From positions 78,250 to 142,249 of the forward strand of contig JAKLDJ010000003.1 in the NCBI GenBank assembly GCA_022703585.1: a stretch of DNA of 64,000 nucleotides. The letters run 5' to 3'. A program made the position numbers and the translations under genes. The DNA is from Candidatus Omnitrophota bacterium. GTDB taxonomy: Bacteria > Omnitrophota > Gorgyraeia > Zapsychrales > JAKLDJ01. The first letter of the stretch is position 1. Each line of letters begins with the position of its first letter. Below are positions 708-53,271 of this stretch, piece by piece. Below the pieces are notes generated by a model. The model was not told the DNA's origin. It searched no databases and saw only the letters and a list, made by a program, of their open reading frames with translations.

Positions 708-708
708 T

Positions 709-2568
709 ATGAATATCTTTGCGCAATCGGCAGCTGCGGCACAGGACAGCAATCGGCACCTTAAAGGAATTTTGTTAAAACATATTCCGCTGATCGTGTT
801 TATCGTATCGGCAGGTGTGGGTGCTTCGCTGCTGGAAGGTATAAGCCTGGCTTTAGTGATACCGATTTTAGGCGACGCCGCCGGCCAAGTTACTTCTAGA
901 ATTCCGGCACCCTTTAACCAGCTTTGCGGGCTTTTTTCCGGATTAAGCCTCGCCGACAGAGTGCGTATTGTTGCCTTGCTGATCGTTGTTGTAACTGCCG
1001 TAAAAGGCATTCTGATTTTCTTCAATAACGCGATGGCGAATAAACTGCAGATCGAGATTGTCAAACACTTCCGCATGCTGTGTTTTAACCAATTCACGAA
1101 AGTCAGCATGAGCTACATCAATGATCAAAAAAGCGCGCATTTGCAGACCATTGCGGTTCATTATACGCTGTCGTTGGGAAGGATGTTTAATGCCATCGGT
1201 ATCGTGGTGCCGAAGTTTTTTACCGTCGTTATACTTCTTGTCATGCTGATGCTGTTGTCATGGCAATTGACGCTGGCTTCTTTGGTTTTAATCGGGATCT
1301 CTTCTTTGGTTTTACGCAGGATTGTCCGGAAGGCCAGCGCGGCGAGCCGAAAACTTACCGACGCCGACAAGGGCATCAATAGCGTTGTCCTTGATTCGCT
1401 TTTGGGAATGAAGGTAGTGCGTTTGTTTAACCGCGAAAAACATATGCGGGATAAGTTTGAAGAAGAGGTAGACCGTGTTAATGCGCATCTTTACCATGTG
1501 GTCAAGACCCATGGTTCGGTTCAACCGGTTTTTGAAATTACCGGTGTCGTCAGCCTTGCTTTTATTCTTATTCTCGGCTCCTTCATGCTTTTAAACGGCG
1601 CAAGCGGCGGGCTGGAAATTATTCTGACGTTCATCATTATTTATTTTCGTATCTTGTCGCCCAGTTTGGCCCTTAATACCGCCCGTGTTCAGGTCGCGAC
1701 TGAATTGCCGTATTACCAGCAGATTTGCCATTTTCTCGAATCGTTCGACAAGCCTTATATAACCAATGGTTCCCAGGATTTTCATAGCCTGTCGCAGGGA
1801 ATAGAATTTTGCGGCATACGTTTTCGGTACAACGAACAGCAATCTTTTGTCTTAAACAGTGTTTCCTTTTATTTGCCTAAAGGAAAGAAAATCGGGATTG
1901 TCGGGGTTTCAGGCTCGGGAAAGACGACGATATGCGAGCTATTGCTTCGTTTTTATGACCCGCAGCAGGGTGATATTCTGGTCGATGGCGCGGATTTAAA
2001 GAAATTTGATTTTTATTCCTGGCGCAGGCATATCGGTGTTGTCAGCCAGGATGTTTTTCTTTTTAATGATACCATTGGGGCCAACATCGGTTTTGCCAAA
2101 CCCGACGCCACAAAAGAAGACATTAAAAAAGCGGCGCAACAGGCCTACGCGGATGAGTTTATCGAGAAATTGCCCCAAGGCTACGAGACAATAATCGGCG
2201 AGCGCGGCGTGCGCTTGTCGGGCGGGCAGAGGCAGCGGCTGGCTATTGCCCGTGCCGTTGTTGTTGATCCGGAAATATTTATTTTCGACGAAGCGACTTC
2301 CGCCCTGGATACGGAGTCGGAAAAATATGTGCAGAAGGCCATTGAAACAGTAGGAAAAGGTAAAACGGTCATTACGATCGCCCATCGCCTTTCAACCGTT
2401 TCGGATTCCGACAAGATTATCGTGATGGATCAGGGCAGAATCGCGGAAGAAGGAACCCACGATCAGCTTTTAGGAAAAAACGGATTGTATACCAAGCTTG
2501 TCCAGATGCAGAACCTTGAATGGGAGATTAAGCAGCAGGAGAAAATAATCGCTTCTACGGCTGAATAA
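709..2568 (+). CDS. ABC exporter, fused permease-ATPase (MsbA/PglK-like type I exporter)
   Basis: N-terminal half has about 6 hydrophobic helices. C-terminal NBD has Walker A GVSGSGKTT, ABC signature LSGGQRQR, Walker B IFIFDEATSALD and H-loop IAHRLST. ATG at 709 lies 1 nt after the upstream stop. Confidence 0.85.
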   Translation: MNIFAQSAAAAQDSNRHLKGILLKHIPLIVFIVSAGVGASLLEGISLALVIPILGDAAGQVTSRIPAPFNQLCGLFSGLSLADRVRIVALLIVVVTAVKGILIFFNNAMANKLQIEIVKHFRMLCFNQFTKVSMSYINDQKSAHLQTIAVHYTLSLGRMFNAIGIVVPKFFTVVILLVMLMLLSWQLTLASLVLIGISSLVLRRIVRKASAASRKLTDADKGINSVVLDSLLGMKVVRLFNREKHMRDKFEEEVDRVNAHLYHVVKTHGSVQPVFEITGVVSLAFILILGSFMLLNGASGGLEIILTFIIIYFRILSPSLALNTARVQVATELPYYQQICHFLESFDKPYITNGSQDFHSLSQGIEFCGIRFRYNEQQSFVLNSVSFYLPKGKKIGIVGVSGSGKTTICELLLRFYDPQQGDILVDGADLKKFDFYSWRRHIGVVSQDVFLFNDTIGANIGFAKPDATKEDIKKAAQQAYADEFIEKLPQGYETIIGERGVRLSGGQRQRLAIARAVVVDPEIFIFDEATSALDTESEKYVQKAIETVGKGKTVITIAHRLSTVSDSDKIIVMDQGRIAEEGTHDQLLGKNGLYTKLVQMQNLEWEIKQQEKIIASTAE

Positions 2569-2598
2569 ATTCTATTCATTTCAAAGGATGGTATTTTA

Positions 2599-3660
2599 AT
2601 GAAGATTCAGATTGGAAAAAAACGGATCGGCGAAGGCGAGCCGCTCTATTTTATTGCAGACATTGCGGCTAATCATGACGGTGATCTTTCCCGGGCGCTT
2701 AAGCTGATTGACTTGGCGAAGGAGGCGGGGGCGGACGCGGCAAAATTTCAGAATTTTCAAGCCTCTAAAATCGTCAGTCGTAAAGGTTTTGAGGGCCTGG
2801 GGGGACAATTAAGCCATCAGGCCTCCTGGAAGAAATCAGTTTTTGAGGTCTATCAGGATGCCAGCCTCGATTTTCACTGGACTGAAAAGCTCAAAAAGCA
2901 TTGCGACGATGTCGGCATTGAATACATGACTTCTCCGTATGATTTTGAGTCGGTTGACCATGTTGATCCGTATGCAAACGTTTATAAAATCGGTTCTGGG
3001 GATATTACCTGGCTCGAGATTATTGAATACATCGGGCGAAAAGGAAAGCCGGTTATCTTGGCGACGGGAGCGGCGTCTCTGGAAGAAGTGAAACGCGCCA
3101 TGAAGGTTTTGGCCGGGGTCAATGACAGAATCGTCTTGATGCAATGCAATACCAATTACACGGGGAGCCCGGAAAACTTTCGGTATATCAATTTGAATGT
3201 CTTAAAAACGTATGCTGCCCTTTTTCCCAATACTATTCTGGGGTTATCGGACCATGCGCCGGGGCCTTCGGCGGTGCTGGGCGCGGTGGCTTTGGGCGCG
3301 CGGGTCTTTGAAAAACATTTTACCGACGATCGCGGGCGCGAAGGCCCGGACCACAAATTCTCCGTGATTCCTTGCGAGTGGAAAGAAATGGTCGCGCGTG
3401 CCGACGAGGTCTACAGAGCGCTTGGGGACGGCGTTAAGAAGGTCGAGGATAACGAGCAGCAAACTTCGATTGTACAAAAAAGGGCATTGCGTTATACGCG
3501 TGACTTAAAGAAGGGTGCGACTTTGACGGCGGCTGACCTGTTTCCGCTTCGTCCGATTCCGCCGGGGGCATTGCCGCCATACGAGATTAAAAATATTCTG
3601 GGCAAGAAATTACGCAGAGATGTTCAGGAGCAGGAATGTGTTATGAAAGGGGACGTTTAA
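2599..3660 (+). CDS. NeuB-family nonulosonic acid synthase (N-acetylneuraminate / pseudaminate / legionaminate synthase-like)
   Basis: N-terminus GEGEPLYFIADIAANHDGDL...AKEAGADAAKFQ matches the NeuB TIM-barrel motif, and the C-terminal segment is SAF/antifreeze-like. RBS AAGGATGG precedes the ATG. Confidence 0.85.
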   Translation: MKIQIGKKRIGEGEPLYFIADIAANHDGDLSRALKLIDLAKEAGADAAKFQNFQASKIVSRKGFEGLGGQLSHQASWKKSVFEVYQDASLDFHWTEKLKKHCDDVGIEYMTSPYDFESVDHVDPYANVYKIGSGDITWLEIIEYIGRKGKPVILATGAASLEEVKRAMKVLAGVNDRIVLMQCNTNYTGSPENFRYINLNVLKTYAALFPNTILGLSDHAPGPSAVLGAVALGARVFEKHFTDDRGREGPDHKFSVIPCEWKEMVARADEVYRALGDGVKKVEDNEQQTSIVQKRALRYTRDLKKGATLTAADLFPLRPIPPGALPPYEIKNILGKKLRRDVQEQECVMKGDV

Positions 3661-3661
3661 T

Positions 3662-4267
3662 ATGCTTAAAGGTCAGCAGATAGCTCTTTTGGCCATCGAA
3701 AGAGAGGATTTAAAGGCGCTTCGGGGCTGGCGCAACAATACCAAATTTAGAAAACATTTCAGGGAGTATCGTGAGCTGAATTCGGAATTGCAGGAAAAAT
3801 GGTACCGTGAATCCGTTCAGAATAATCCGGCGACGATGATGTTCGGCATACACCGGCTTTCGGACAATGAATTATTGGGTTGTTGCGGTTTGACCTATAT
3901 CCATCCGGTCTATCGGCATGCCGATTTATCGTTATATATCGGGTGGAAGGATGCTTATATCGACGACGAGGGTTATGCCCGTGAGGCCTGTGAGCTTCTT
4001 TTTGACTACGGATTTAAAGATCTTGGCCTGAATAAAATCTGGACCGAGATCTACGTTTTCGACACTAAAAAGAAAGAGCTTTATGACAGCCTTGGATTCA
4101 GGGTGGACGGTATTTTACGGCAGAACTATTTTCACGAGGGGCGGTTTTGGGATTCCTATATTTTGTCCTTGCTGGTTAGTGACTGGAGGCAGAAGAATAG
4201 CAGTCTTTCGGGGAGAAAGAAATCTCTCGTCTCGAACAAAAGGAGAAAAAATGTCCGAAAAATATAA
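3662..4267 (+). CDS. GNAT-family N-acetyltransferase (RimL/PseH-like)
   Basis: About 200 aa. The C-terminal block EGYAREACELLFDYGF...NKIWTEIYVFDTKKKELYDSLGF resembles the Acetyltransf_3 core. ATG lies 1 nt after the neuB-like stop. Confidence 0.6.
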   Translation: MLKGQQIALLAIEREDLKALRGWRNNTKFRKHFREYRELNSELQEKWYRESVQNNPATMMFGIHRLSDNELLGCCGLTYIHPVYRHADLSLYIGWKDAYIDDEGYAREACELLFDYGFKDLGLNKIWTEIYVFDTKKKELYDSLGFRVDGILRQNYFHEGRFWDSYILSLLVSDWRQKNSSLSGRKKSLVSNKRRKNVRKI

Positions 4268-4955
4268 TGCCGTAGCAATTATTACTGCGCGGGGAGGCAG
4301 CAAAAGGATCCCGCGAAAGAATATCCGGATGTTCTGCGGCCATCCGATTATCTGGTATTCCATCCAGGCGGCTTTGGATTCGGGCTGTTTTGGCGAGATC
4401 ATGGTTTCTACCGACGACAACGAGATTGCCAATATCGCCAAAGAAATGGGTGCCAAGGTGCCGTTTATGCGCTCTAAGAAAAATTCAGACGACGATAGCA
4501 CGACGGTGGATGTCTTGGAGGAAGTGCTTACGGAATATAAAAAGAAGGGAAAGATCTTTGATTTCTTTTGCTGTCTCTATCCGACGGCACCGTTTGTATC
4601 GGGGGGCCGTTTAAGAGAAGGCTGTGAAGCCTTGGTGTCTTCCAAAGCGGACAGCGTGCTTCCTATTGTTCGTTTTAGCTATCCCGTATGGCGGGGATTA
4701 AAGGTTGAAGACGGCAGGATAAAAATGTGGTGGCCCGAAAATTATAATAAAAAGTCTCAAGACTTGCCGCCTGTTTTTCATGATGCCGGCCAGTTTTATG
4801 TGATGCGGACAGAAAGCTTGCTTAAGCAGAAACAGCTTTATGCCCAAAACTCGATAGGGCTCGAGATTCCGGAATCGCAGTGCCAGGATATCGACAGTGA
4901 TGAAGATTGGAAACTGGCTGAAATGAAGTATCAGTTGCTTAACAGAAAAAGTTAA
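4251..4955 (+). CDS. CMP-nonulosonic acid synthetase (acylneuraminate cytidylyltransferase family, NeuA/PseF-like)
   Basis: N-terminus AIITARGGSKRIPRKNI is the hallmark cytidylyltransferase motif. I chose the internal ATG at 4251, preceded by RBS AAAGGAGAAAAA, rather than the long upstream extension of ORF 4083. Confidence 0.8.
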   Translation: MSEKYNAVAIITARGGSKRIPRKNIRMFCGHPIIWYSIQAALDSGCFGEIMVSTDDNEIANIAKEMGAKVPFMRSKKNSDDDSTTVDVLEEVLTEYKKKGKIFDFFCCLYPTAPFVSGGRLREGCEALVSSKADSVLPIVRFSYPVWRGLKVEDGRIKMWWPENYNKKSQDLPPVFHDAGQFYVMRTESLLKQKQLYAQNSIGLEIPESQCQDIDSDEDWKLAEMKYQLLNRKS

Positions 4956-6064: not shown

Positions 6065-7198
6065 TTGAACTATTGTACGCAATGCCTTCAGCCGGATACC
6101 CGGCCCAATATTAAGTTTAATGCGCAAGGGGTTTGCCCGGCGTGTGAATACTGGTCCACGCTCAACGTCATGGACTGGGATGAGAAACGAAAGATTTTGC
6201 TGGAGATTTGTGATTTTGGCATTGCTCATAAATCATGGGGCTATGACTGTATTATCGGAGTGAGCGGCGGTAAGGATAGCACCCGGCAAGCGTTGTTTGT
6301 CAGGAATGTGCTGAAGATGAACCCGCTTCTGGTGTGCTGCACCTATCCTCCCGATCAGGTTTCTGACCGGGGAGCGTACAATATCCAAAACTTGATTTCT
6401 CGCGGATTTAATACGGTTATCGTCGGTCCGGCTCCGCAGACCTGGAAAAAGAATATGCTTAACGGCTTTTATAAATACGGAAACTGGCAAAGGTCTACGG
6501 AGCTCGCGCTATTTACGAGTGTCCCTCGCTTGGCGATTGCCTACCAGATTCCCTTGATCTTCTGGGGGGAGAATCCTGCTCTAATCTTAGGAGAGCTTGG
6601 TGTGAGATCCAACGGATACGATGGCAATCAAATGAAGTGGGCCAACACACTGGCCGGCGGAGATCCGTCTTGGTTGTGTGTCGACGGGATAACGAAGAAA
6701 GATGTCCTATGTTACAGTTATCCGGCGGATGAGGAAATGACCCGTGCCGGTTTAAGGATCATCTATTTAAGTTACTTTTGGAAAGTATGGTCAAGGCTTG
6801 AGAACGGGATGCTTGCTGCCGTTCACGGCCTGGATGTCCGGGATGATCATTCAGAAACCATCGGCGATATACTCGGCGTCGAGGCATTGGACGAGGACTG
6901 GATTACTGTTAATCAAATGATCAAATTCCGAAAATTCGGATTTGCCAGGGTCACGGAACTTGTCTGTGAAGAGATACGTTTTGGCCGGATGAAACGGGAA
7001 GAAGGTATTCCGTTGATAGAAAAATATGACGGGAAATGTTCGGATAAGCTCGTCGGGAATTTCTGCGATTATCTGGGGATATCTATCGAAGAGTTCTGGA
7101 GAGTGGCGGATTCCTATACGAATAAAGAAATATTTGAAAAAGACAAAAAGGGTTCCTGGAAATTAAAGTACCCAGTCGGTGTCTGCCATGCACGGTAA
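6065..7198 (+). CDS. N-acetyl sugar amidotransferase (WbuX/PseA/WbpG family, PP-loop ATP pyrophosphatase)
   Basis: N-terminus YCTQCLQPDTRPNIKFNAQGVCPACEY is the family-typical Cys cluster. PP-loop SGGKDS is present. TTG start with RBS AGGGGAGAAG. Confidence 0.8.
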   Translation: MNYCTQCLQPDTRPNIKFNAQGVCPACEYWSTLNVMDWDEKRKILLEICDFGIAHKSWGYDCIIGVSGGKDSTRQALFVRNVLKMNPLLVCCTYPPDQVSDRGAYNIQNLISRGFNTVIVGPAPQTWKKNMLNGFYKYGNWQRSTELALFTSVPRLAIAYQIPLIFWGENPALILGELGVRSNGYDGNQMKWANTLAGGDPSWLCVDGITKKDVLCYSYPADEEMTRAGLRIIYLSYFWKVWSRLENGMLAAVHGLDVRDDHSETIGDILGVEALDEDWITVNQMIKFRKFGFARVTELVCEEIRFGRMKREEGIPLIEKYDGKCSDKLVGNFCDYLGISIEEFWRVADSYTNKEIFEKDKKGSWKLKYPVGVCHAR

Positions 7199-7811
7199 AG
7201 TCGCGATTATTGATTATGGGGTCGGCAATGTTCATTCGGTTGCCTGCGCCCTGTCATTTCTCGGATATAGAAATATGACGACGCGGGATCCCAAAATCAT
7301 CCGCCAGGCAGATGCCTTGATTTTGCCCGGGGTTGGCGCCTTCGGCCAGGCGATGGCCAATTTAAAGAAATTTGACCTGTTGGAACTTTTAAACGGAGAG
7401 GTCCTCCGTAAGGGAAAACCGATTCTGGGGATTTGTTTGGGTATGCAGATTCTAGGAAACAGCTCGGAGGAGTCGCCGGGACATAAGGGGCTTGGCTGGA
7501 TCGATTTTGATGTGGTCAGCATACCGCAATCGCCACAATTAAAAGTCCCGCATGTAGGATGGAATACGCTGCGGGTGGAGAATCAAAAAGATTTATTCAC
7601 AGGGCTAGAAGAAGAACCGCATTTCTATTTTGACCACAGTTATTACGCTGATTGTTCTAATGGTTATACGGTCGCCCGCTGTCATTATGGCGCGATGATG
7701 CCGGCAGTTGTCGTCAAGGGCAATATCACCGGGGTCCAGTTTCATCCCGAAAAAAGCCAGAGAAACGGCTTGAAATTATTCAGAAATTATTTTAATCATC
7801 TGGGGGTCTGA
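7179..7811 (+). CDS. HisH-like class-I glutamine amidotransferase (WbuY-type; glycan amidotransfer, not histidine biosynthesis)
   Basis: VAIIDYGVGNVHSV, the catalytic Cys in GICLGMQIL, and GVQFHPEKS are present. The gene is flanked by amidotransferases, with no other his genes nearby. Confidence 0.85.
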   Translation: MSAMHGKVAIIDYGVGNVHSVACALSFLGYRNMTTRDPKIIRQADALILPGVGAFGQAMANLKKFDLLELLNGEVLRKGKPILGICLGMQILGNSSEESPGHKGLGWIDFDVVSIPQSPQLKVPHVGWNTLRVENQKDLFTGLEEEPHFYFDHSYYADCSNGYTVARCHYGAMMPAVVVKGNITGVQFHPEKSQRNGLKLFRNYFNHLGV

Positions 7812-7812
7812 T

Positions 7813-8685
7813 TTGCTTAAAAAACGGCTTATAGCAACATTGATCGTGCGGGAGGGGATCGTTGTGCAAAGCATCAATTTCCGCAGGTATTTGCCCGTGG
7901 GCAAGCCCGCGATTGCCATCGAATTCTTAAATTCATGGGGTATTGACGAAATTGTCCTTATCGATATTACGGCATCCAAGGATCACTCCCGGAAGAAATA
8001 TGATTTTATCGAAGAGATTACCCGTAAGTGTTTCGTTCCCTTGACTGTAGGGGGCGGTATCAGTTCGGTCGACGACATCCGCGCGCTGCTGGGTTTTGGG
8101 GCAGACAAAATATCGGTCAATTCGTATTGTCTGGCTCATCCGGAATTTATTAGTGAAGCGGCGAAGATCTTTGGCAATCAATGTATTGTGGTAGCTATCG
8201 ATGCCGTTGGCTCTTCCCCGTCGGACTATCGTGTGTACAACGCGGCAAAAGGGGCGGTTATGGATGTCTCTCCGGTTGATTGGGCAAGAAAAGCGGAAGC
8301 GATGGGGGCGGGCGAAATCTATATAACATCGGTCGATCGCGACGGATCAAAAAAAGGTTTTGACCTCGGGCTTATTGATTTGGTCGCCCGCAGCGTGAAG
8401 ATCCCGGTTATTGCCAGCGGCGGGGCGGGAAAATCATCCGATGTTCTCGATGTTTTCTGCCGGACGAACGCCTCTGCGGTTTCAGCTGCCAATTTCTTTC
8501 ATTTCTCGGAGCACAGTGTCATTGTCACAAAGTCAATCTTGAGGAGCAAGGGAGTAGATATTCGTTTAAACACGCACGCCGATTACGAAAAAAGCCCCTT
8601 CGGGGATGATTTTCGTTTAAAGAAAAGGTCAGAGGCCTATCTCGGGGACCTGCTTTTTGAGAGGATCGAGAAAGAGATCATATGA
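7813..8685 (+). CDS. HisF-like cyclase subunit (WbuZ-type)
   Basis: IATLIVREGIVVQS...DEIVLIDITAS and two G-rich phosphate-binding loops are present. TTG start 2 nt after the hisH-like stop, preceded by GGGGG. Confidence 0.85.
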   Translation: MLKKRLIATLIVREGIVVQSINFRRYLPVGKPAIAIEFLNSWGIDEIVLIDITASKDHSRKKYDFIEEITRKCFVPLTVGGGISSVDDIRALLGFGADKISVNSYCLAHPEFISEAAKIFGNQCIVVAIDAVGSSPSDYRVYNAAKGAVMDVSPVDWARKAEAMGAGEIYITSVDRDGSKKGFDLGLIDLVARSVKIPVIASGGAGKSSDVLDVFCRTNASAVSAANFFHFSEHSVIVTKSILRSKGVDIRLNTHADYEKSPFGDDFRLKKRSEAYLGDLLFERIEKEII

Positions 8686-9938
8686 TTTACTGCAAGAGAT
8701 GTCTATATCCGGAAAATCACCCGCTCCATCTAATATTTGATAGCGAAGGGGTCTGTTCCGGGTGCCGCGTTCATGAGGAAAAAGATGTGCTGGATTGGCA
8801 TGAACGGGCGCAGAACCTGGGACGTATTTTTGATGATTACCGAAGCCGTTCGGGGAAGAATTATGACTGCATCATTCCGGTTAGCGGTGCCAGGGATTCC
8901 TATTTTATCGTTCATACGGTTAAAAACGTATTTAAAATGAATCCGTTACTGGTTTCCTATAATCAGCATTACAACACGGATATCGGCATACGGAATTTAG
9001 CGTACTTACGGATCAAGTTTAATTGTGATTATTACCAGTTGACCGTATCTCCGGAAATCGTCAAGAAGATCACGCGCGCGACCATGCGAAAACGGGGCAG
9101 TATCTACTGGCACTGCATTGCCGGCCAGACGGTTTACCCGGTGCAAATGGCGGTTCAATTTAAAATCCCCTTAATTGTCTGGGGGGCGCATCAGGGGGTC
9201 GACCAAGTCGGAATGTTCTCTCATTTGGATGAAGTTGAGATGACGAGGAAATACCGCAAAGAACATGACCTGATGGGGCTCGAGGCCGAGGACCTGGTTG
9301 ACGAATTCGATTTTATAGAAGAAAAAGATATGGCTCCGTTCGTTTACCCGGACGACAAGGAAATTGAGAAAGTCGGAGTGAGAGGGATCTACCTTAATAA
9401 TTACATACGGTGGGATTCAAAAAAACAGCATGAAGACATGATTCGGCTCTACGGATACGAAACCGCTTTGCAGACCAGGACATTTGATAATTATAACGAC
9501 ATCGACTCTTTTAATTATTCCGATGTCCACGACCATATCAAGTTTCTAAAATGGGGTTATGGCAAGGTCAATGACCATGTTGCCAGGGAGATTCGTCTTA
9601 AACGGATGACCGCGCAAGAAGGCGTAGAAAAGATCGATGCCTATTTATACCGGCCCCCTAAAAATCTTTCTAAATTCTTAGAATGGATCGGGATGACCGA
9701 AAGGGCATTTAATTTTGTGATCGACCAACACCGCAGTCCGAGCGCATGGAAGAGAAACGCGAGATGGGAATGGGAGTTAAAGTCGCGTATCACAAAAGAA
9801 CTAATCGATGATTCGTCTAGGACGGTCGCTCTAGACAAAAAAGAAACTTGCGACTTTGTTTTGACGTCTTCACGAAAACCGGGATATGTCGAGGATAAGT
9901 ATATCTTAATCGGGAAAGGTGCTGTAGGGAACGCTTAA
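8682..9938 (+). CDS. N-acetyl sugar amidotransferase, second paralog (WbuX/PseA family)
   Basis: N-terminus YCKRCLYPENHPLHLIFDSEGVCSGCRVHEE and PP-loop SGARDS are present. ATGA overlap with the hisF-like stop. Confidence 0.8.
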   Translation: MIYCKRCLYPENHPLHLIFDSEGVCSGCRVHEEKDVLDWHERAQNLGRIFDDYRSRSGKNYDCIIPVSGARDSYFIVHTVKNVFKMNPLLVSYNQHYNTDIGIRNLAYLRIKFNCDYYQLTVSPEIVKKITRATMRKRGSIYWHCIAGQTVYPVQMAVQFKIPLIVWGAHQGVDQVGMFSHLDEVEMTRKYRKEHDLMGLEAEDLVDEFDFIEEKDMAPFVYPDDKEIEKVGVRGIYLNNYIRWDSKKQHEDMIRLYGYETALQTRTFDNYNDIDSFNYSDVHDHIKFLKWGYGKVNDHVAREIRLKRMTAQEGVEKIDAYLYRPPKNLSKFLEWIGMTERAFNFVIDQHRSPSAWKRNARWEWELKSRITKELIDDSSRTVALDKKETCDFVLTSSRKPGYVEDKYILIGKGAVGNA

Positions 9939-9942: not shown

Positions 9943-12087
9943 ATGCTTGAAACGGCGAACATTTATGTGGAATATTTGACCGTCTGGAATTGGCTTAAAG
10001 TTATTCTTCCGGCGCTGCGTCTTTACGCCCGCGAACAATCCGGGCGCCAATGCCGTTGCTATATTTTTGACAGCACGCCTGTCGCATTGTGGCTGGCCAG
10101 GCATTGGGGTCGGATAGAGGGATTTTTGGTTGAAAAAATAGACTTTCAAATAGCGGATGTCAAGGATGAGCAGGGGTTATCGGGCTTGTCTTGGGTTTGT
10201 CACAAGAATCCCGTTGAAATCCAAAGGATGATCCTCAATAATCCTGATTTTATATCCTTTACCGGCGGTCTCGACCCCCATTCCTTTGCAAAGGCATATT
10301 TGGCAAAATTACCTGTTATTTATTACAGCCTTATCGGTCCTCAGAAATACAGCGAAACAGGACACGTGGCATTCATGATTCAGATCGTGCATTGGCATCA
10401 GCGTCGGCTGGGCCATCATTCTTTGCGTGTCGATCTCTATGTTATCCCAAGGCTCTGGATGAAAGAGCTTCAAGAATACGCCAAATCCTATGGCGGGCGC
10501 TTGTGCGCGCTGGGGCCAGTGAAACTTTGGCGCTGGAAATGGGCAGAGTATAAAAGCAGGCTGAGCAATGTAAACCTTAATTTGATTAAGGCGCTTGTGC
10601 GGCACAAAATCTTTGAGTTCAGCGTCAAGCAGGGGCGGGTCGAGAACAAGTTTTATTTTAAGACTGATATTGTTCGGATGTTAACCGAAAGTTACGGGCA
10701 ATTTAATCTGGACGATCCGCAGTGCCATAGCGATGTCTTTTATGCCGATGAAAAAGCCCTGCGCCTGAAAGATATACTCCTCTATTTTAACTCAGTTACT
10801 GATCCTATTGATGAGAAGAAGTACGCGCTCCTTCAAAAACACGACCTTGCCGCTGTGGCTTTGACACCGCAATCATGCCTTGTTGACCCGGCGCTGGTTC
10901 CGGTGTTCCGTGCCGACGCAAAAGTCTCCATCGATGTCCCAAGCTATCCGGCTAAGGCGAGTCGGGAGATCAAGTCGCTGGCGGTGTCATTGGCTCACTA
11001 TAATAAGTTACGCAGCTATTGGCGTCAGTTCCTGCAGCGCTACAACATCAAGCTTTACACAAGCTGGCTTAACTGCGAGGCGAACACGATGGCCATTGCG
11101 GATGCGCTTACCGATGTCGGCGGGATCTCTTCGATCTACCAGCGTTCCTACAAGCCGGGTGTTTCTCCTCAATTAGCCGTGGGAACGGATATCATTTTTG
11201 GATTTTCCAACAGGGATTGTGAACTTCAGGCAGGGAGCGGTTCGCAGTTTCGTTATTACGTAACTGTCGGATATCTGGGGGACAATCGTTTTGATGTTTT
11301 GCGCCCCAGGGCTTCGCAGATCCGCAATCAATTATTAACGCACGGTGCTAAACACATTATCGCTTATTTCGACGAGAATACGCTGGATGATGGAAGATGG
11401 TTCCACGGGCACAAGATGGCGCAGGATAATTACCGTTTTTTGTTGGAAAAATTATTATTTAATTCTGAGCTGGGCCTTGTTTTAAAACCTAAGGTCCCCG
11501 GTACGTTACGCCGCAGATTAGGCGATATCAACAGGCTTTTGGTCGAGGCTGAAAAGACTGGGAGATGTTTCATGTTCGGGGAAGGGAGCATTTTCGGCTC
11601 TTATCCGCCTGCCGCCGCGGCCTTAGCGGCTGACATTGCGATTCATGACCAGTTGGCGTGCGGCACGGCAGGATTGGAAGCGGCTCTTGCCGGCATTCCC
11701 ACTTTGTTAATTGACCTCGAAGGGTGGTCTTTTAGCCCGTTATATGGGTTGGGAGATCATGTTGTTTTCACGGATAGAGACAGCGCTTGGCGTGCCTGTG
11801 AAGCGTATTTTAAGGATCCCTTGGCTCATCCCAGAGCGGGCAACTGGTCATCAATGATTAACGAATTTGACCCTTTTCATGATGGACGGGCGGCGCAGAG
11901 GATGAGCCGTTATTTAAAAGATCTTTTAGAGGGTTTGCGTGCGGGAGAAAAACCAACGGAGGTAATGGAAAAAGTTGCTGAACGCTATGCCCGTCAATGG
12001 GGCAAAGACAAGGTTCAACGAGGACCAAGATACGATGTTCATCTTTCTGTCGGAGAAAGTCTCAATCGTAAGGAGGTACGTCTGTGA
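9943..12087 (+). CDS. hypothetical 714-aa protein, possible GT-B-like/capsule-biosynthesis-like glycosyltransferase
   Basis: Long ORF with no hallmark motif I can name. The C-terminal segment GTAGLEAALAGIPTLLID...VVFTD resembles a GT-B C-terminal Rossmann half. Confidence 0.5.
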   Translation: MLETANIYVEYLTVWNWLKVILPALRLYAREQSGRQCRCYIFDSTPVALWLARHWGRIEGFLVEKIDFQIADVKDEQGLSGLSWVCHKNPVEIQRMILNNPDFISFTGGLDPHSFAKAYLAKLPVIYYSLIGPQKYSETGHVAFMIQIVHWHQRRLGHHSLRVDLYVIPRLWMKELQEYAKSYGGRLCALGPVKLWRWKWAEYKSRLSNVNLNLIKALVRHKIFEFSVKQGRVENKFYFKTDIVRMLTESYGQFNLDDPQCHSDVFYADEKALRLKDILLYFNSVTDPIDEKKYALLQKHDLAAVALTPQSCLVDPALVPVFRADAKVSIDVPSYPAKASREIKSLAVSLAHYNKLRSYWRQFLQRYNIKLYTSWLNCEANTMAIADALTDVGGISSIYQRSYKPGVSPQLAVGTDIIFGFSNRDCELQAGSGSQFRYYVTVGYLGDNRFDVLRPRASQIRNQLLTHGAKHIIAYFDENTLDDGRWFHGHKMAQDNYRFLLEKLLFNSELGLVLKPKVPGTLRRRLGDINRLLVEAEKTGRCFMFGEGSIFGSYPPAAAALAADIAIHDQLACGTAGLEAALAGIPTLLIDLEGWSFSPLYGLGDHVVFTDRDSAWRACEAYFKDPLAHPRAGNWSSMINEFDPFHDGRAAQRMSRYLKDLLEGLRAGEKPTEVMEKVAERYARQWGKDKVQRGPRYDVHLSVGESLNRKEVRL

Positions 12088-13127
12088 CCGATGTTCCTTT
12101 TAAGAAGTATTCCAAATCGTCAGGTTTTTATACAAAAACGCATAAGGAATTTTTTACGGAAAATGAATCCCTTTTAGCCAAGATAGAAGAACACAATCGG
12201 ATTTACCGGGAGCAGCCGGTCCGGGAGTATTGTAAATTATGCCATGAAAAGCTGCCGACTCTTAAGGATCTCGTTTCGCATGATATTCCTTACTTTTTTT
12301 GTTCCAATTGCGGGCATTTCAACGGAGCCTACGAAGATACCAAGGAATTTGTAAAAAAGATTTATCTCGAAGACACCAATTATTCGGATCACTACGTGAA
12401 TGCTGAATTTGATTCGCGAACCAAGAATATTTATGTCCCTAAAGTAGATTTTCTCGCAGAGAATCTTCCTCCGGGTATCCGGCCAAGGGTTCTTGATATA
12501 GGTTGTGGCAGCGGCAATTTTGTATACGCCTGTTTACAAAGGGATATTGAAGCGGTGGGGATAGACTTTTCGGCCAAGGCCGTTGACTTTGGAAATCAAC
12601 AAATACGGCAACGATTAAATAAATCTCCGCTGACACTGGTTTCGGAAGAGACATTCTTTCAGTCTATTGTCGGGTCGGATGCCAGTGTCTTAAGCGCTAT
12701 CGGGGTCCTTGAGCATTTGCGCGAACCGGATAAGCTTTTTGATGCGTTTGAAAAGAGCCGGATGACCTATTTGTTTTATTCTGTGCCGATGTTCTCTGCT
12801 TCGGTGATTTTTGAGAATGCCTTTCCGGCAGTATTCCCCAGACAGCTCGGAGGGGACCACACGCATTTATTTACCGAATCTTCGGTCGAATGGATGCATA
12901 AAAACAAGAATTTGTGTTCGCTTGCGGAGTGGCGATTTGGGACGGGTGTTATGGATTTGTATAGAAGCCTTTTGATAACCCTCAAGAAGAACGGTGCATC
13001 GGACAAGCTTCTTAAAATCTTTGAAGAGGGGTTTGCCCAAAAGATTGATGCCTTACAGGCTGTTCTTGATAAGAATAACTTTTGCTCGGAAATCCATTGC
13101 CTGGTAAAGAAAGAAAGGATGTCATGA
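12084..13127 (+). CDS. class I SAM-dependent methyltransferase with N-terminal zinc ribbon
   Basis: CKLCHEK...CSNCGHF gives CxxC...CxxC, and motif I is VLDIGCGSGNF. GTG start overlaps the upstream stop; RBS AAGGAGG. Confidence 0.7.
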   Translation: MTDVPFKKYSKSSGFYTKTHKEFFTENESLLAKIEEHNRIYREQPVREYCKLCHEKLPTLKDLVSHDIPYFFCSNCGHFNGAYEDTKEFVKKIYLEDTNYSDHYVNAEFDSRTKNIYVPKVDFLAENLPPGIRPRVLDIGCGSGNFVYACLQRDIEAVGIDFSAKAVDFGNQQIRQRLNKSPLTLVSEETFFQSIVGSDASVLSAIGVLEHLREPDKLFDAFEKSRMTYLFYSVPMFSASVIFENAFPAVFPRQLGGDHTHLFTESSVEWMHKNKNLCSLAEWRFGTGVMDLYRSLLITLKKNGASDKLLKIFEEGFAQKIDALQAVLDKNNFCSEIHCLVKKERMS

Positions 13128-13414
13128 ATATCTTGAGCTATTTTCATATCGATATGTGGACGCTTTGGGGTCTCGTCTCCCAGGGCCTTTTTTTCTTAAG
13201 TTTTGTTGTCCAGTGGTACGAATCGGAAAAGAGAAAGACTTCTGTTATCCCGATGGAATTTTGGTATCTGCGCATCTTAGGGGCGTTGATGACCTTTATT
13301 TATGCCGTCGCGCGTCGGGATATCGTTTTTTTGGCATCGACGGTGCTGCAGATTATTATTTATTCACGCAATATCCATTTGATCAGTCTCAAGGCTCCCG
13401 CCGGAAAGGGGTAA
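13124..13414 (+). CDS. small 2-TM membrane protein, lipid-A-disaccharide-synthase N-terminal-like domain (GT2 accessory)
   Basis: About 96 aa with two hydrophobic helices, WYESEKRK between them and a YAV.RRD motif. ATGA overlap with the upstream gene. Lies directly upstream of a polyprenyl-P GT2. Confidence 0.55.
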   Translation: MNILSYFHIDMWTLWGLVSQGLFFLSFVVQWYESEKRKTSVIPMEFWYLRILGALMTFIYAVARRDIVFLASTVLQIIIYSRNIHLISLKAPAGKG

Positions 13415-13418
13415 GGCT

Positions 13419-14354: not shown

Positions 14355-14382
14355 GTGAGTTCAAGGCAGTTCTCGTTATGAG

Positions 14383-14434
14383 GGCTGCCGGGGCTTGCAT
14401 TTCTTTTCCGCGGGAATAGCAGCAACGATTTTTT
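14383..14434 (+). terminator. candidate intrinsic terminator (imperfect GC hairpin followed by a T-run)
   Basis: GCTGCCGGGG...CCGCGGGAATAGCAGC can pair (GCTGC/GCAGC arms) and is followed by AACGATTTTTT. Lies in the 101-nt gap after the GT2 gene. Confidence 0.3.
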
Positions 14435-14455
14435 AAGGAAGGGGGTCATCGTTAT

Positions 14456-16540: not shown

Positions 16541-16562
16541 AACGATTTTAGGGAAAGAGGAA

Positions 16563-18278: not shown

Positions 18279-18311
18279 GAATATTTATCAAAACATCAAA
18301 GGGAGCGATAG

Positions 18312-20117: not shown

Positions 20118-20149
20118 TTTTATTTTAAAACATCATAGAAGGAATACAT

Positions 20150-21662: not shown

Positions 21663-23480
21663 ATGGTTTCCGGAATTTTTTATGTTGTGATCGTTCAAAA
21701 TAAAAGACGGTTGCGAGCGTATTTGAGAAAGCAGGCCAAAGCCGTAACCGAAAAACGCTCATGCTTGATTCTATGTGAGCCGTCCGTGGATGAGCTGGAT
21801 TTATTAAAGCAGGCGCAATGCGAAATCGTTTCCAAGCCGTCTTTGATGCGGTATCGGGACCAATTCCTTAGGGAGTATATTGATTTGATAGGCATGTTAA
21901 GCCGTGAACTAGATAGCTTGATGTGGTGGGCGACCGATGCCTCGTCAAAGAATCGGCACATGTCGACCCTGCCGGCTTTGCTGGAACAATTTTTATTGGC
22001 CATGGAGACCGCTAAGCGCAAAGACGGTGATTGTCTGGTCATTTATAATGTCCCGTGGCCGGTTATTTCATCTCTAGCGAAATCATTAAGCGCCTGCGAT
22101 ATTCGTACAGTAGTCTTGAGCGATATTTACCAGTGGCATGCGGAATTGTTTTTTGGCTTTGTCCGGCGTGTCGGATCGGTCTTATGGAATATTGTCCGGA
22201 CTTCGCTTAACAAATGTTACGCCCATTTTTATTTCCCAAGATTACCCAAGATCGATGAACAATGCTATGTAGCGAAAACGTTTATTTATGAACATTTATT
22301 TACAAAAGACGGTCGCTATCAGGATATTTTCTTCGGCTCCTTGCTGGATTTTTTGCAGAAAAAAAAGAAGCTCCTCGTGCTTGCCTATGTCTGGGATCAT
22401 CACCGCCGTGTTATGAAGAAGATGAAAGAATATCGGGATTTGACCATTATTCCGGTGGAATGCTTTCTGTCCTTTTGGAGTATTGTTAAAGATTCGCTTA
22501 AGGTGCTTTTTTATAAGGCACGTACTAAAAGCAAGATTTTGTTTTTCGGTTTTGACGTAAGCGATATGATCAACCAGGAATTTACCCGGACGTTTTCTAA
22601 GATTCAACCCATCCAGCTTCTTCATTATTCACTGACCCGGTGTTTTTTAAAGCATTATTCCGTCGAGACATTTCTGATGACGTATGAAAATAATCCCTGG
22701 GAGAAGATGTGCATCCTGGCGATGAGGCGGGATTCGCCCAAAACGCAGCTGTTGACCTATCAGCACGTGGTCGTTCCTCAGGCAACGGCAAATATGTTTA
22801 CCAGCCGCCTGGAAGAGGATGTGCTGCCTCAAGCGGACCGAATCTTAACCGCGGGCCGGATTCCCAAAGAGACGATCGAAAAGTACCGTACCTCGCAAAA
22901 GGTGAAAGTAGAGGCTGCCTGTGCGCTGCGGTTTGAATATCTGCGGAATATTCCGATAAGTCCGCGCCGCAAAGCCGGAAGGATCGTTGTCGGACTAGAA
23001 GGCGTTCCGGCGATTTGTCAATTGGTCAACTATCTCTTTGAGCAATTAGGAGATAACCGCCGTTTTGAGGTATTGATCCGCACTCATCCCACATTCCCCT
23101 GGGAATCTTTTTCTTCAAAAATAAAATACGATATTAAATCTTACCCGCATTTTAAGGTTTCGCACGGCACCTCGGCCAAGGCCGATATTGATTGGGCGGA
23201 TCTGATGATTTATTGGGGCAGCACGGTGGCTTTGGAGGCTTTAAGCGCGGGGAAACCGGTTATTCACTTTGATATGGCAACGGTGCTGGATTTTGATCCG
23301 TTGTCCGATTGTCCTTATTTGCGGCGCACTGTTTCTAGTCAGGATTCGCTGGTTGTCGCAATAGACGAAATTTATAGCTGGGATGATACCGCCTTTGCGT
23401 CTCAACAACGGCAGGCCCGTCAATACATTGAAGAATATTTTTACCCGGTGACGGAAGAAAATCTTACAAAGTTTATCTAA
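21663..23480 (+). CDS. hypothetical 605-aa protein, possible GT-B-like transferase
   Basis: I can name no family. The C-terminal GSTVALEALSAGKPVIHFD resembles the GT-B nucleotide-binding half. RBS GGGGAG. Confidence 0.5.
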   Translation: MVSGIFYVVIVQNKRRLRAYLRKQAKAVTEKRSCLILCEPSVDELDLLKQAQCEIVSKPSLMRYRDQFLREYIDLIGMLSRELDSLMWWATDASSKNRHMSTLPALLEQFLLAMETAKRKDGDCLVIYNVPWPVISSLAKSLSACDIRTVVLSDIYQWHAELFFGFVRRVGSVLWNIVRTSLNKCYAHFYFPRLPKIDEQCYVAKTFIYEHLFTKDGRYQDIFFGSLLDFLQKKKKLLVLAYVWDHHRRVMKKMKEYRDLTIIPVECFLSFWSIVKDSLKVLFYKARTKSKILFFGFDVSDMINQEFTRTFSKIQPIQLLHYSLTRCFLKHYSVETFLMTYENNPWEKMCILAMRRDSPKTQLLTYQHVVVPQATANMFTSRLEEDVLPQADRILTAGRIPKETIEKYRTSQKVKVEAACALRFEYLRNIPISPRRKAGRIVVGLEGVPAICQLVNYLFEQLGDNRRFEVLIRTHPTFPWESFSSKIKYDIKSYPHFKVSHGTSAKADIDWADLMIYWGSTVALEALSAGKPVIHFDMATVLDFDPLSDCPYLRRTVSSQDSLVVAIDEIYSWDDTAFASQQRQARQYIEEYFYPVTEENLTKFI

Positions 23481-24448: not shown

Positions 24449-24458
24449 GAGAACTTGA

Positions 24459-25454: not shown

Positions 25455-25494
25455 GCGGGACAGGCGTTCAATATATTGCATTATATAAAAGCAT

Positions 25495-26631: not shown

Positions 26632-26638
26632 GGGCGAT

Positions 26639-30367: not shown

Positions 30368-30376
30368 ATTTGCCGT

Positions 30377-43458: not shown

Positions 43459-43511
43459 TATTATTTTAGCCGATTGAGTTTTGCCTGCATATGAGATACA
43501 GCGCTGAAATG

Positions 43512-47009: not shown

Positions 47010-47037
47010 TTGACAATAATGTATTCTTTGGTAGGAT
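47010..47037 (+). promoter_or_regulatory. candidate sigma70-like promoter (TTGACA, 16 nt, TAGGAT) upstream of the WbaP-like gene
   Basis: Consensus -35 TTGACA at 47010-47015 and a weak -10 TAGGAT at 47032-47037. Lies in a 435-nt noncoding gap. Confidence 0.2.
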
Positions 47038-47108
47038 TTTAATGTTTAAAGAAGCAAGGTCTTGGCTCTAATTTAGTGTGGATGCGGTAGGCTTTTCTCT
47101 CTATCTAA

Positions 47109-53269: not shown

Positions 53270-53271
53270 TT

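Follow-up and report, generated by a model that had tools for sequence, protein, structure and literature searches.

Two remotely related proteins with GT-B-like folds as candidate CMP-nonulosonate transferases in a surface-glycan locus of Candidatus Omnitrophota

Known transferases of sialic-acid-like sugars

Few kinds of transferase are known for pseudaminic (Pse) and legionaminic (Leg) acids, e.g., Maf, FlmG, KpsS/KpsC-like proteins, and the enzymes of Tannerella, and knowledge of Pse/Leg transferases has been termed "scarce" (PMC5420450). The proteins Tanf_01245, TFUB4_00887, and BFO_1060 of Tannerella forsythia (NCBIfam model NF046086) are genetically validated transferases of Pse or Leg derivatives and carry an HP motif of the (K/R)xHP form (PMC5420450). 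Sialyltransferases and retaining Kdo transferases bind CMP through (K/R)xHP, and the Pse transferase of A. baumannii is a homologue of KpsC (PMC12887879). In bacterial sialyltransferases, an additional D/E-D/E-G motif, described by Freiberger, lies upstream of HP. The SpsB protein of B. subtilis likewise has a TagB domain as well as DEG and HP motifs, which together with the adjacency of its gene suggested a Leg transferase, yet it proved dispensable for Leg transfer (PMC7439481).

Organization of the locus

The window, i.e., the whole stretch of 64,000 nucleotides analyzed here, derives from a Candidatus Omnitrophota metagenome-assembled genome (MAG) and includes a surface-glycan locus of ~54 kb holding two genes of interest. 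ORF1 (9943..12087, + strand) encodes 714 amino acids (aa) and ORF2 (21663..23480, + strand) 605 aa. Inspection of the gene models showed both to be real open reading frames with ATG starts; gene calls on 17 independent contigs yield exactly the ORF1 product, e.g., DAOOUB010000002.1 of GCA_035390605.1, and a protein from a Ca. Omnitrophota MAG (P0016) is 100% identical to ORF2. Both products are soluble and basic, ORF1 having a pI of 9.0 and no transmembrane segment, and both genes are translationally coupled within the operon. The ATG of ORF1 lies 4 nt past the stop codon of a WbuX gene, while its stop codon overlaps the GTG of the following gene, which encodes a SAM methyltransferase.

Upstream of ORF1, all genes described here are on the + strand. 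The operon is headed by a fused ABC exporter with a transmembrane and a nucleotide-binding domain (709..2568), which is likely the flippase or exporter of a lipid-linked glycan, and homologues of which adjoin ORF1 or ORF2 relatives in loci L023, L034, L045, and L084. A nonulosonate core block follows (2599..4955), consisting of a NeuB/PseI-like synthase (2599-3660) and a PseH-like GNAT protein (3662-4267), both matching their models below cut-off, and the cytidylyltransferase PseF (4251-4955; 293 bits, cut-off 206). PseF is the sole CMP-sugar synthetase in the window and would be the source of the presumed CMP-sugar donor. An acetamidino-forming module (6065..9938) of a WbuX amidotransferase (6065-7198), HisH-like (7188-7811) and HisF-like (7813-8685) proteins, and a second WbuX (8682-9938) abuts ORF1 on its upstream side, an arrangement kept in other genomes. 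The locus also encodes a machinery working on undecaprenyl phosphate (Und-P), made up of Bac_transf, WecG, and Wzy_C proteins together with the ABC exporter.

Family assignment

A preliminary description, made by eye, placed neither protein in any family, and database searches agree. Pfam returned no match for ORF1 or ORF2 and only noise for 69 members of the ORF1 family, and neither ORF1 nor any of 16 relatives matched an NCBIfam model at E<=1. Glycos_transf_2, Glycos_transf_1, a Maf-type domain, and TIGR03590 (PseG) were likewise without a match at E<=1 in ORF1, ORF2, and the 69 ORF1 relatives. Searching the PDB sequences with ORF1 full-family profiles (built from 16 and 136 sequences) and a C-domain profile gave chance matches only (pyridoxal kinase, a dehydrogenase; E >1). 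ORF1 thus shows no significant similarity to any characterized protein, Pfam or NCBIfam model, or PDB sequence, although its family is large, comprising 1871 representatives (at 50% identity) with at least 10 phylum-level labels, all from MAGs. It is a candidate for a new glycosyltransferase (GT) family.

The matches of ORF2 to NCBIfam are all sub-threshold and make it distant kin of three families. It scores 30.1 bits against TIGR04326 (curated cut-off 250) and 38 bits against TIGR04396 (curated cut-off 125), both below membership, as well as 18.4 bits (E 9e-4) against NF046086, the BFO_1060 family glycosyltransferases, of which it is not a member because the cut-off is 200 bits. These similarities extend across the ORF2 family, as TIGR04326 is matched by 48/48 sampled members (best 2e-22), TIGR04396 by 44/48, and NF046086 by 29/48 (best 2e-8), always below threshold, while the ORF1 family matches none of the three. 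Against PDB sequences, the ORF2 profile found only a short OGT-like match in the C-domain (5djs, a GT41 enzyme; E 0.12-0.27), and a homology search with the C-domain profile retrieved mostly fragments. Searches of the literature for TIGR04326, LIC13510, and TIGR04396 found nothing relevant.

Predicted fold and relationship of the two proteins

The preliminary description also likened the C-terminal parts of both proteins to the nucleotide-sugar-binding half of a GT-B fold, and structure prediction supports a GT-B-type fold for both rather than that of a hydrolase or scaffold. The AlphaFold2 model of ORF2 has a pLDDT of 93.4 and 218 Foldseek matches in the PDB at E<=1e-3, the best 50 of which are essentially all GT-B proteins (best E 1.5e-8), including BshA, NeuC, MurG, WaaA, the TagF-like Cps3D, and OGT-type proteins, albeit at low query-normalized TM-scores of 0.31-0.39. 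The model of ORF1 (pLDDT 67.7) rests on an alignment of only 16 sequences. Its top matches are again almost all GT-B proteins, led by HepE (E 6.7e-6) and including WecB and Cps3D, with low query-normalized TM-scores of 0.24-0.29. Residues 398-448, a segment holding several of the most conserved residues, are modeled poorly (pLDDT <50). Judged from the models, the two Rossmann-like α/β domains and C-terminal nucleotide-sugar site of the GT-B superfamily are predicted clearly for ORF2 and moderately well for ORF1, owing to the low TM-scores and the poorly modeled segment of the latter. Solved sialyltransferases were absent from the 50 best Foldseek matches, and no match to them was found at the sequence level. 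The GT-B fold also occurs in proteins that are not transferases, e.g., NeuC, WecB, and PseG.

When compared directly, ORF1 and ORF2 gave no BLASTP match. An hhalign comparison of shallow profiles was suggestive only and was replaced by one of deeper profiles, which aligned the two proteins over 428 colinear columns (E 0.004), while 14 control comparisons reached scores of 13-26 and at most 174 columns. Within this alignment, the two families share 25 conserved positions where 11.9 would be expected, and 15 of these 25 hold the identical residue. Secondary structures predicted independently agree at 67% of the aligned positions, with 47 of 59 strand residues coinciding (29-45% and 2-21 of 59 in shifted controls). 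Taken together, the comparisons of profiles, conserved residues, and secondary structure indicate that the two proteins are remote paralogues rather than independent novelties.

Conserved residues of the C-terminal domain

The preliminary description reported no DXD, EX7E, SDR, or P-loop motif, and scanning both sequences gave the same result: P-loop, SDR, and Rossmann glycine motifs are absent, and no DXD or EX7E is conserved in either protein. Its broader statement that neither carries a recognizable motif is correct for these standard motifs but overlooked R473-T-H475-P476 of ORF2 (23079..23090, + strand). This (K/R)xHP motif of CMP-sugar transferases sits after strand 469-473 of the model, and its R, H, and P do not vary among 48-65 relatives. 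In ORF1, the corresponding place, which follows strand 510-515, the second of the C-terminal Rossmann domain, is taken by K515-P516-K517 (11485..11493, + strand), which is 100% conserved in 136-155 sequences and contains no His. In the alignment, K515 of ORF1 corresponds to R473 of ORF2 and P516 to P476.

The acidic pair D477-E478 of ORF1 (11371..11376, + strand; 99% and 95% conserved) closes the first strand of the C-terminal domain, ~38 residues ahead of K515, and is a candidate catalytic or D/E-D/E-G-like site. Looking for D/E-D/E-G at the level of sequence, we found only L-E446-G447 in ORF2 (E 91%, G 100% conserved), and in ORF1 D477-E478-N and D482-D483-G484, the latter not conserved as a triplet. 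The QxxxD motif of the retaining β-Kdo transferases (GT99, GT107, and GT140) occurs nowhere in ORF2, and in ORF1 such strings are found only outside the C-domain core with an unconserved Q; the string QCHSD was therefore rejected as a nucleophile motif, being also in the wrong domain.

The Gly/Ala-rich segments that were said to end each protein exist, though in the C-terminal quarter rather than at the very end. In ORF1, GTAGLEAALAGIPTLLID (aa 574-591; 11662..11715, + strand) is the nucleotide-binding helix region of the GT-B C-domain and gives a weak LpxB-like match. Its conserved T575, E579, and G584 align with T521, E525, and G530 of ORF2, where the segment GSTVALEALSAGKPVIHFD (aa 519-537; 23217..23273, + strand) resembles the same region of the GT41 enzyme noted above.

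Proposed function

We regard it as about evenly balanced whether ORF1 and ORF2 are CMP-(non)ulosonate transferases of the GT-B fold, remotely paralogous and acting on an Und-P-linked glycan. The preliminary description called them sialyltransferase-like. The GT-B folds, the linkage to NeuB/NeuA-type genes described below, the (K/R)xHP motif of ORF2, and the weak family-wide similarity of ORF2 to the Tannerella Pse/Leg family speak for this view; the missing motif His of ORF1 and its lack of detectable similarity to characterized enzymes speak against it. By analogy, the precedent of SpsB would also count against transfer, the grounds being similar there. For glycosyl transfer, its donor and acceptor, the roles of single residues, and the export route, we infer the following.

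Both proteins would be cytoplasmic and membrane-peripheral, with an extra N-terminal α/β domain followed by two Rossmann-like domains, and could form one superfamily with TIGR04326, TIGR04396, and the BFO_1060-type enzymes of Tannerella. The C-terminal Rossmann domain would bind a CMP-activated nonulosonic or ulosonic acid by its CMP moiety, the putative contacts being R473/H475/P476, the GST helix, and E525 for ORF2, and K515/K517, R541, the GTAG helix, and E579 for ORF1. The sugar acid would then be passed to a growing Und-P-linked glycan, which may leave via the fused ABC transporter and be ligated or polymerized by the Wzy_C-type proteins of the locus. As the window encodes no CMP-sugar synthetase other than PseF, both enzymes may act on pseudaminic-acid-type donors, possibly tailored differently (amidino, methyl, or carbamoyl groups).

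Genomic context and alternative readings

The linkage to NeuB/NeuA-type genes, whose co-occurrence the preliminary description had suggested checking, is tight for the ORF1 family: NeuB or CTP_transf_3, a CMP-sugar synthetase, is encoded within 10 kb of the ORF1 homologue in 36/44 species-level loci. NeuB, WbuX, and HisH/F are almost always upstream, WbuX being found there 18 times and downstream once, and a gene of the ORF2 family is present in 28-31 of the 44 loci, always downstream of ORF1 and in the same orientation, in 7 loci immediately next to it. Searching from the ORF2 side, an ORF1 homologue was found upstream in 2/3 sampled loci. In further genomes, genes of the ORF2 type lead a sugar-acid block of the HpcH-aldolase type with its own CMP synthetase; this block is missing from the present locus, which makes the donor of ORF2 in this genome uncertain. 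An association of ORF2 presence with the HpcH block was marginal only (20/28 versus 6/16; Fisher p 0.054), and nothing relevant was found in the literature on an HpcH-type ulosonate pathway.

This recurrent order, together with the loss from ORF1 of both conserved His residues of the ORF2 family (H368 is R401 in ORF1, and HP is replaced by K-P-K), could also be explained if ORF1 were a divergent or inactive partner, i.e., a pseudo-glycosyltransferase, an acceptor-binding subunit, or a scaffold, in a heteromeric transferase or polymerase whose CMP-sugar is bound by ORF2 alone. Yet 13-16 of the 44 ORF1 loci have no ORF2 within 10 kb, as in L006, where ORF1 lies between WbuX and a CMP synthetase, and the two genes are 9.5 kb apart in the window. 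Moreover, ORF1 retains charged residues at pocket-like positions of the C-domain (invariant K515, K517, R541, D564, D647, and R653, besides the near-invariant D477/E478), a pattern typical of an active enzyme. We consider an inactive partner unlikely.

The neighborhood of WbuX and HisH/F, which are encoded upstream of ORF1 in 14-18 of the 44 loci, with WbuX directly adjacent in some including this window, and the translational coupling of ORF1 to the second WbuX and the SAM methyltransferase raise the question of whether ORF1 binds and modifies a CMP-nonulosonate or an intermediate together with this module instead of transferring it to a glycan. Such a tailoring role appears quite improbable, as 28/44 ORF1 loci contain no WbuX within 10 kb, and homology to ORF2 and the BFO_1060 type favors glycosyl transfer; to our knowledge, the GT-B fold is not associated with tailoring chemistry of this kind.

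It seems just as improbable that one or both proteins are TagB/TagF-like and move an alditol-phosphate or sugar-phosphate unit from a CDP-activated donor instead of a sugar acid from a CMP donor. Foldseek lists the TagF-like capsule polymerase 8qoy for both proteins, one weak homologue of the ORF2 C-domain is labeled TagB/SpsB family by JGI, the Tannerella enzymes have a TagB-type domain, and an RfbF/G/H CDP-glucose pathway is encoded just outside the window on its upstream side. However, the window contains no genes for CDP-glycerol or CDP-ribitol synthesis, the conserved neighbors are NeuB and the CMP-ulosonate synthetase CTP_transf_3 rather than TagD/TarI-type proteins, and Pfam Glyphos_transf is silent for both families even at E<=1.

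Finally, a PseG/NeuC/LegG-like hydrolase or 2-epimerase supplying a missing step is very unlikely: although the window and the 10 kb upstream of it encode PseB, the NeuB-like synthase, and PseF but neither PseG nor Epimerase_2, and Foldseek ranks epimerases of the WecB and NeuC types among its top matches, Epimerase_2 is present in 16/19 NeuB-carrying ORF1 loci, which rejects ORF1 as its substitute (PseG or LegG), and co-occurs with an ORF2 homologue in L084, while no NCBIfam PseG/NeuC model matched at E<=1, each protein is ~2x the size of PseG or NeuC, and the ORF2 motif is of the CMP rather than the UDP type.

Returning to transfer from CMP-sugars, ORF1 and ORF2 are good but unproven candidates for attaching sialic-acid-like sugars to cell-surface glycans, because they are GT-B-shaped and recur as an ordered pair beside genes for such sugars in many uncultured bacteria. 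A wider proposal, possible though doubtful, is that the pair forms a conserved module of paralogous three-domain GT-B transferases where a NeuB-type Pse/Leg pathway (upstream) meets an HpcH-pyruvate-aldolase-type pathway (downstream), and that in many uncultured phyla both enzymes jointly make a glycan with two types of ulosonic acid. ORF1 would then found a new CAZy family, whose binding and activation of CMP-sugars would rely on a His-less K-P-K variant of (K/R)xHP. The fixed place of the ORF1 family in nonulosonate loci makes it a concrete candidate for the display of sialic-acid-like sugars by uncultured bacteria and a possible source of new biocatalysts for nonulosonate glycoconjugates, and K-P-K is a natural variant in which the contribution of the motif His to CMP-sugar transferases can be studied. 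Should the transferase reading fail, the assignment to GT-B enzymes would stand for ORF2, and probably for ORF1, but the question of the missing transferase in these loci would remain.

Comparison with known systems

Like the flagellin nonulosonate transferases Maf and FlmG, which use CMP-nonulosonates, ORF1 and ORF2 are encoded beside Pse/Leg genes. Unlike them, they contain no detectable Maf-type domain, as neither protein nor family matches Pfam, and the locus is of the Und-P or O-antigen type, with no flagellin or flagellar genes among the ~40 window ORFs scanned, which are those up to ~58.3 kb other than three minus-strand ORFs at 40894-45590.

The sialyl- and polysialyltransferases of CAZy families GT38, GT52, and GT80 share with both proteins a GT-B architecture of two Rossmann domains and no metal-binding DXD. 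They hold the CMP-sugar via (K/R)xHP in the C-terminal domain with an acidic residue upstream, to which RTHP and E446-G447 of ORF2 and D477-E478 of ORF1 may be compared, whereas ORF1 has Lys for the motif His, and both proteins have an extra N-terminal domain of ~190 aa.

Retaining β-Kdo/Pse transferases of the KpsC/KpsS/WbbB type combine a modified GT-B fold and an HP motif for CMP binding with CMP-ulosonic acid substrates, and KpsS and KpsC act as a pair, which is reminiscent of ORF1 and ORF2. However, their defining QxxxD nucleophile motif is absent from both C-domains, Pfam Capsule_synth matches neither protein nor family, and export here would involve the fused ABC exporter and Wzy_C proteins, not KpsMT.

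The uncharacterized NCBIfam subfamilies TIGR04326 (LIC13510-type) and TIGR04396, named "surface carbohydrate biosynthesis proteins", belong to the same kind of surface-glycan loci, and TIGR04326 proteins (~600 aa) are similar in length to ORF2, but its scores stay far below their cut-offs and the ORF1 family matches neither. Compared with the Tannerella NF046086 enzymes, ORF1 differs in matching no part of the model and in its motif without His, and ORF2 in its length (605 versus ~445 aa) and extra N-terminal domain. Otherwise, the likeness to these enzymes includes a gene beside a CMP-nonulosonate pathway, a soluble GT-B or TagB-like protein with an HP motif, and a C-domain, aa 458-593 of ORF2, that aligns to the NF046086 model.

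Family searches and conserved residues

ORF1 (9943..12087, plus strand, 714 aa) and ORF2 (21663..23480, plus strand, 605 aa), which lie exactly where the preliminary description placed them, are best explained as peripheral-membrane GT-B transferases of a CMP-activated sugar acid, a reading that we consider about evenly balanced overall. It is more secure for ORF2, where it is probable, than for ORF1, where it falls a little short of even; all functional statements on either protein are what we infer. The earlier view that neither could be placed in a family by eye was upheld: Pfam gave no match for either protein and NCBIfam none for ORF1, while ORF2 gave only sub-threshold NCBIfam matches to the surface carbohydrate biosynthesis families TIGR04396 (1e-9) and TIGR04326 (1.6e-7) and to NF046086 (9e-4), a model of pseudaminic/legionaminic acid (Pse/Leg) transferases. 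As also noted then, both lack a P-loop, an SDR motif and a conserved DXD or EX7E, and the Gly/Ala-rich strings that had been likened to a nucleotide-sugar-binding half correspond to aa 574-591 in ORF1 and aa 519-537 in ORF2. Both proteins are soluble with a pI of 9.0. Translational coupling links ORF1 to both neighbours, its ATG lying 4 nt beyond the preceding stop and its own stop overlapping the GTG that starts the next gene. The identical 714-aa call is found on 17 public contigs, GCA_035390605.1 among them, and ORF2 shares 100% identity with a protein from a Candidatus Omnitrophota MAG.

The ORF1 family is large and has no Pfam or NCBIfam model. A word-index search returned only 15 relatives, whereas an exhaustive profile search gave 1871 representatives at E≤1e-3, of which 812 reached E≤1e-30; nearly all are 650-730 aa long. 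Scanning one genome per GTDB species gave 78 loci, every one from a MAG, labelled Omnitrophota, 'Planctomycetales', Acidobacteriota/Terriglobia, Nitrospirota, Delta- and Betaproteobacteria, Chloroflexota, Elusimicrobia, SAR324, Latescibacteria and others. Invariant or nearly so are G443, D447, D477, E478, K515-P516-K517, R541, D564, E579, G584, D591, D647 and R653. In the ORF2 family, D221-x-F-F-G, E342..P-W-E347, Y-Q-H368, N377, R423, E446-G447, R473-x-H475-P476, S500, Y517, T521, E525 and D545-P-L are strictly conserved.

Relationship between ORF1 and ORF2

ORF1 and ORF2 are remote paralogues, with concordant evidence from profiles, conserved positions and secondary structure. Deep-profile hhalign aligned ORF1 136-624 with ORF2 104-572 (E 0.004, score 34.9, 428 colinear columns), as compared with scores of 13-26 and at most 174 columns in 14 reversed or unrelated control comparisons. 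Positions conserved in both families were aligned in 25 cases against 11.9 expected, although the p-value of 1.6e-5 is optimistic because the aligner itself favours such coincidences. The residue is the same at 15 of the 25 (F266/F223, F267/F224, Y399/Y366, Q400/Q367, D416/D392, R449/R423, F450/F424, R461/R435, P516/P476, D564/D513, T575/T521, E579/E525, G584/G530 and two more). Secondary structures, predicted independently and compared over this alignment, itself made without structural information, agreed at 67% of aligned positions, with 47/59 ORF1 strand residues on ORF2 strands; shifted controls gave 29-45% and 2-21/59. The informative differences are two His positions: ORF2 H368 aligns with ORF1 R401, and R473-x-H475-P476 with K515-P516-K517. 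ORF1 might accordingly be a His-less, non-catalytic partner of ORF2, which we find unlikely, as it keeps its invariant charged residues and occurs without ORF2 in 13-16 of 44 loci.

Predicted structures and known relatives

Structure prediction agreed with the GT-B fold first proposed for the two proteins, confidently for ORF2 and with low TM-scores for ORF1. The AF2 model of ORF2, built with 48 relatives, reached pLDDT 93.4 and pTM 0.91, and its 50 best PDB matches were essentially all GT-B enzymes, including BshA (1.5e-8), NeuC, CalG2, MurG, WaaA, OGT/SPY and the TagF-like Cps3D. The ORF1 model, from 16 sequences only, was mediocre (pLDDT 67.7, below 50 at residues 398-448); its best matches were also GT-B, namely HepE (6.7e-6), WecB and Cps3D. 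Both models carry an additional N-terminal alpha/beta domain of ~190 residues.

The (K/R)xHP motif, to which R473-x-H475-P476 of ORF2 conforms and in which the basic residue contacts cytosine, is the CMP-binding motif common to sialyltransferases (GT29/38/42/52/80) and retaining Kdo transferases (GT99/107) (PMC12887879). Among validated enzymes, the Pse/Leg-derivative transferases of Tannerella forsythia are the only relatives reachable by sequence. These, including BFO_1060, the namesake of NF046086, combine a TagB-like domain with HP and D/E-D/E-G motifs; their deletion leaves the O-glycan without its terminal nonulosonate (PMC5420450). Members of the ORF2 family matched TIGR04326 (48/48), TIGR04396 (44/48) and NF046086 (29/48, best 2e-8), all below curated cut-offs, so that ORF2 is related to these families without belonging to them; ORF1 is connected to them through ORF2 only. 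SpsB of B. subtilis is an important caution: despite a TagB domain, DEG and HP motifs and a gene adjoining the Leg genes, it is dispensable for Leg transfer (PMC7439481). The Cps3D and TagB hints would also fit TagF-like phosphotransferases using CDP donors, but neither CDP-alditol genes in the window nor a Glyphos_transf match were found, making this improbable.

Genomic association

Association was counted in 44 species-level ORF1 loci with at least 6 kb on either side. A NeuB (nonulosonate synthase) or CTP_transf_3 (CMP-sugar synthetase family) homologue lies within 10 kb of ORF1 in 36/44, which bears out the suggested co-occurrence with NeuB/NeuA, and at least one of NeuB, CTP_transf_3, WbuX or ORF2 is present in 42/44. 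A random 22-kb bacterial stretch would hold a NeuB/CTP_transf_3-type gene ~1-2% of the time, by our own estimate rather than by computation. According to the model chosen, 28-31 loci hold an ORF2-family gene, always downstream on the same strand and adjoining in 7; searching from ORF2 relatives, an ORF1 homologue was upstream in 2 of 3 sampled loci. No description of this conserved, ordered pair was found in the literature searched.

Neighbouring genes keep strongly to one side of ORF1, with NeuB (19 upstream, 3 downstream), WbuX (18, 1) and HisH/HisF (14, 0) mainly before it and HpcH (2, 15), SIS (1, 13) and HAD (0, 11) after it, the typical order being [NeuB] HisF HisH WbuX - ORF1 - ORF2 - GFO MT SIS TAL HpcH HAD SDR SDR CTP 2HADH. 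ORF1 is found both in Leg-type clusters (e.g., loci L001/L006, with LegB/C-like genes, PtmE, NeuB, Epimerase_2 and a CMP synthetase) and in the Pse-type cluster of the window, and is therefore tied to nonulosonates generally, not to one stereoisomer. In many MAGs, ORF2 homologues are followed by GFO_IDH_MocA, Methyltransf_23, SIS, TAL_FSA, HpcH_HpaI aldolase, HAD, two SDR, CTP_transf_3 and 2-Hacid_dh genes (L084:11865-19985, L085:15270-21767, L086:13250-21570; also L015, L019, L024, L026, L035). This conserved HpcH block, for which no paper was found, has the appearance of a PEP-independent pathway, based on a pyruvate aldolase, that would yield a second CMP-activated ulosonic acid.

The surface-glycan locus

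The locus runs on one strand to about 54 kb. It opens with a fused ABC exporter (709-2568), a NeuB/PseI-like synthase (2599-3660), a PseH-like GNAT (3662-4267) and PseF (4251-4955); PseF passes its equivalog cut-off, whereas the NeuB-like and PseH-like proteins fall below theirs. Directly upstream of the window (L089:8015-9999), the gene after a PseB equivalog encodes an RmlD-like reductase in place of the PseC aminotransferase, and the nonulosonate pathway (24-4955 plus this upstream segment) is non-canonical. Further upstream, a divergent minus-strand CDP-glucose pathway (L089:2928-6905; RfbF, CDP-glucose 4,6-dehydratase, RfbH, another reductase/epimerase) implies that the glycan also draws on a CDP-3,6-dideoxyhexose.

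Two WbuX amidotransferases of the N-acetyl-sugar type (6065-7198, 8682-9938) surround HisH/HisF-like genes (module 6065-9938), an arrangement suggesting that the sugar receives one or two acetamidino groups; in L029 and L076 the same module is flanked by two ORF1-family copies. That ORF1 is a tailoring enzyme acting with WbuX is about as improbable as the TagF-like reading. PseC/LegC, PseG and Epimerase_2 genes were found neither in the window nor in the 10 kb upstream, but that ORF1 or ORF2 is a PseG/NeuC-like hydrolase for the missing step is the least probable alternative, since Epimerase_2 stands alongside ORF1 in 16/19 NeuB-containing loci.

Between ORF1 and ORF2 (12084-21640) lie methyltransferases, a GT2, two B12-binding radical-SAM enzymes (15206-16540, 20150-21640), a family-less protein and a carbamoyltransferase (18312-20117). 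With the SPASM radical-SAM enzyme after ORF2 (23513-24448), the B12-binding enzymes and the carbamoyltransferase imply unusually heavy glycan tailoring; B12-radical-SAM genes occur near ORF1 homologues in 15/44 loci. The family-less protein (16419-18278, up to 619 aa) has ~9 predicted TM segments and matches nothing in Pfam or NCBIfam. Its ORF shares about 120 nt with the radical-SAM ORF before it, so the true start probably lies later; in L009, L043 and L048 a homologue stands directly upstream of the ORF1 homologue. At 13124-14354, a GT2 is immediately preceded by a small membrane protein with a LAB_N domain (called at 96 aa), a pairing characteristic of polyprenyl-phosphate sugar synthases that have a GtrA-like partner.

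The SPASM gene opens a segment (23513-32384) with a NanM-like O-methyltransferase, a GT2, a Wzy_C-like protein, RmlB/RmlA-type genes and a GT4, and a later one (45878-54042) holds WecG, an initiating Bac_transf, two further Wzy_C, GDP_Man_Dehyd (GDP-mannose dehydratase), an NAD-dependent epimerase/dehydratase and a GT2. The three Wzy_C-type proteins (26624-28621, a weak match only; 48556-49866; 51881-53269) are ligase, polymerase or O-oligosaccharyltransferase-like and, together with three family-less polytopic membrane proteins (32393-33802, 36244-37407, 37491-39170), are unusually many for a single locus. Two fused methyltransferase-GT2 proteins are also present (34883-36280, 465 aa; 39184-40875, 563 aa), the latter similar to AglJ/PpgS-type polyprenyl-phosphate glycosyltransferases.

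Proposed role and comparison with known systems

As transferases, ORF1 and ORF2 would move a sugar acid from its CMP-activated form onto the Und-P-linked glycan that the locus assembles. ORF1 may use the NeuB-type nonulosonate, often amidino-modified, and ORF2, in most genomes, the product of the HpcH block; this block is absent from the window, and therefore ORF2 here would need a Pse-type donor or one encoded elsewhere. Nonulosonate transferases are a recognised gap, for which the two proteins are now concrete, testable candidates. ORF2 adds a new, divergent member to a superfamily that already has models but is uncharacterised, and ORF1 represents a model-less family with a variant K-P-K motif. 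Compared with known systems, we infer a new form within a known enzyme type, the GT-B CMP-sugar transferase, rather than a system of a new kind.
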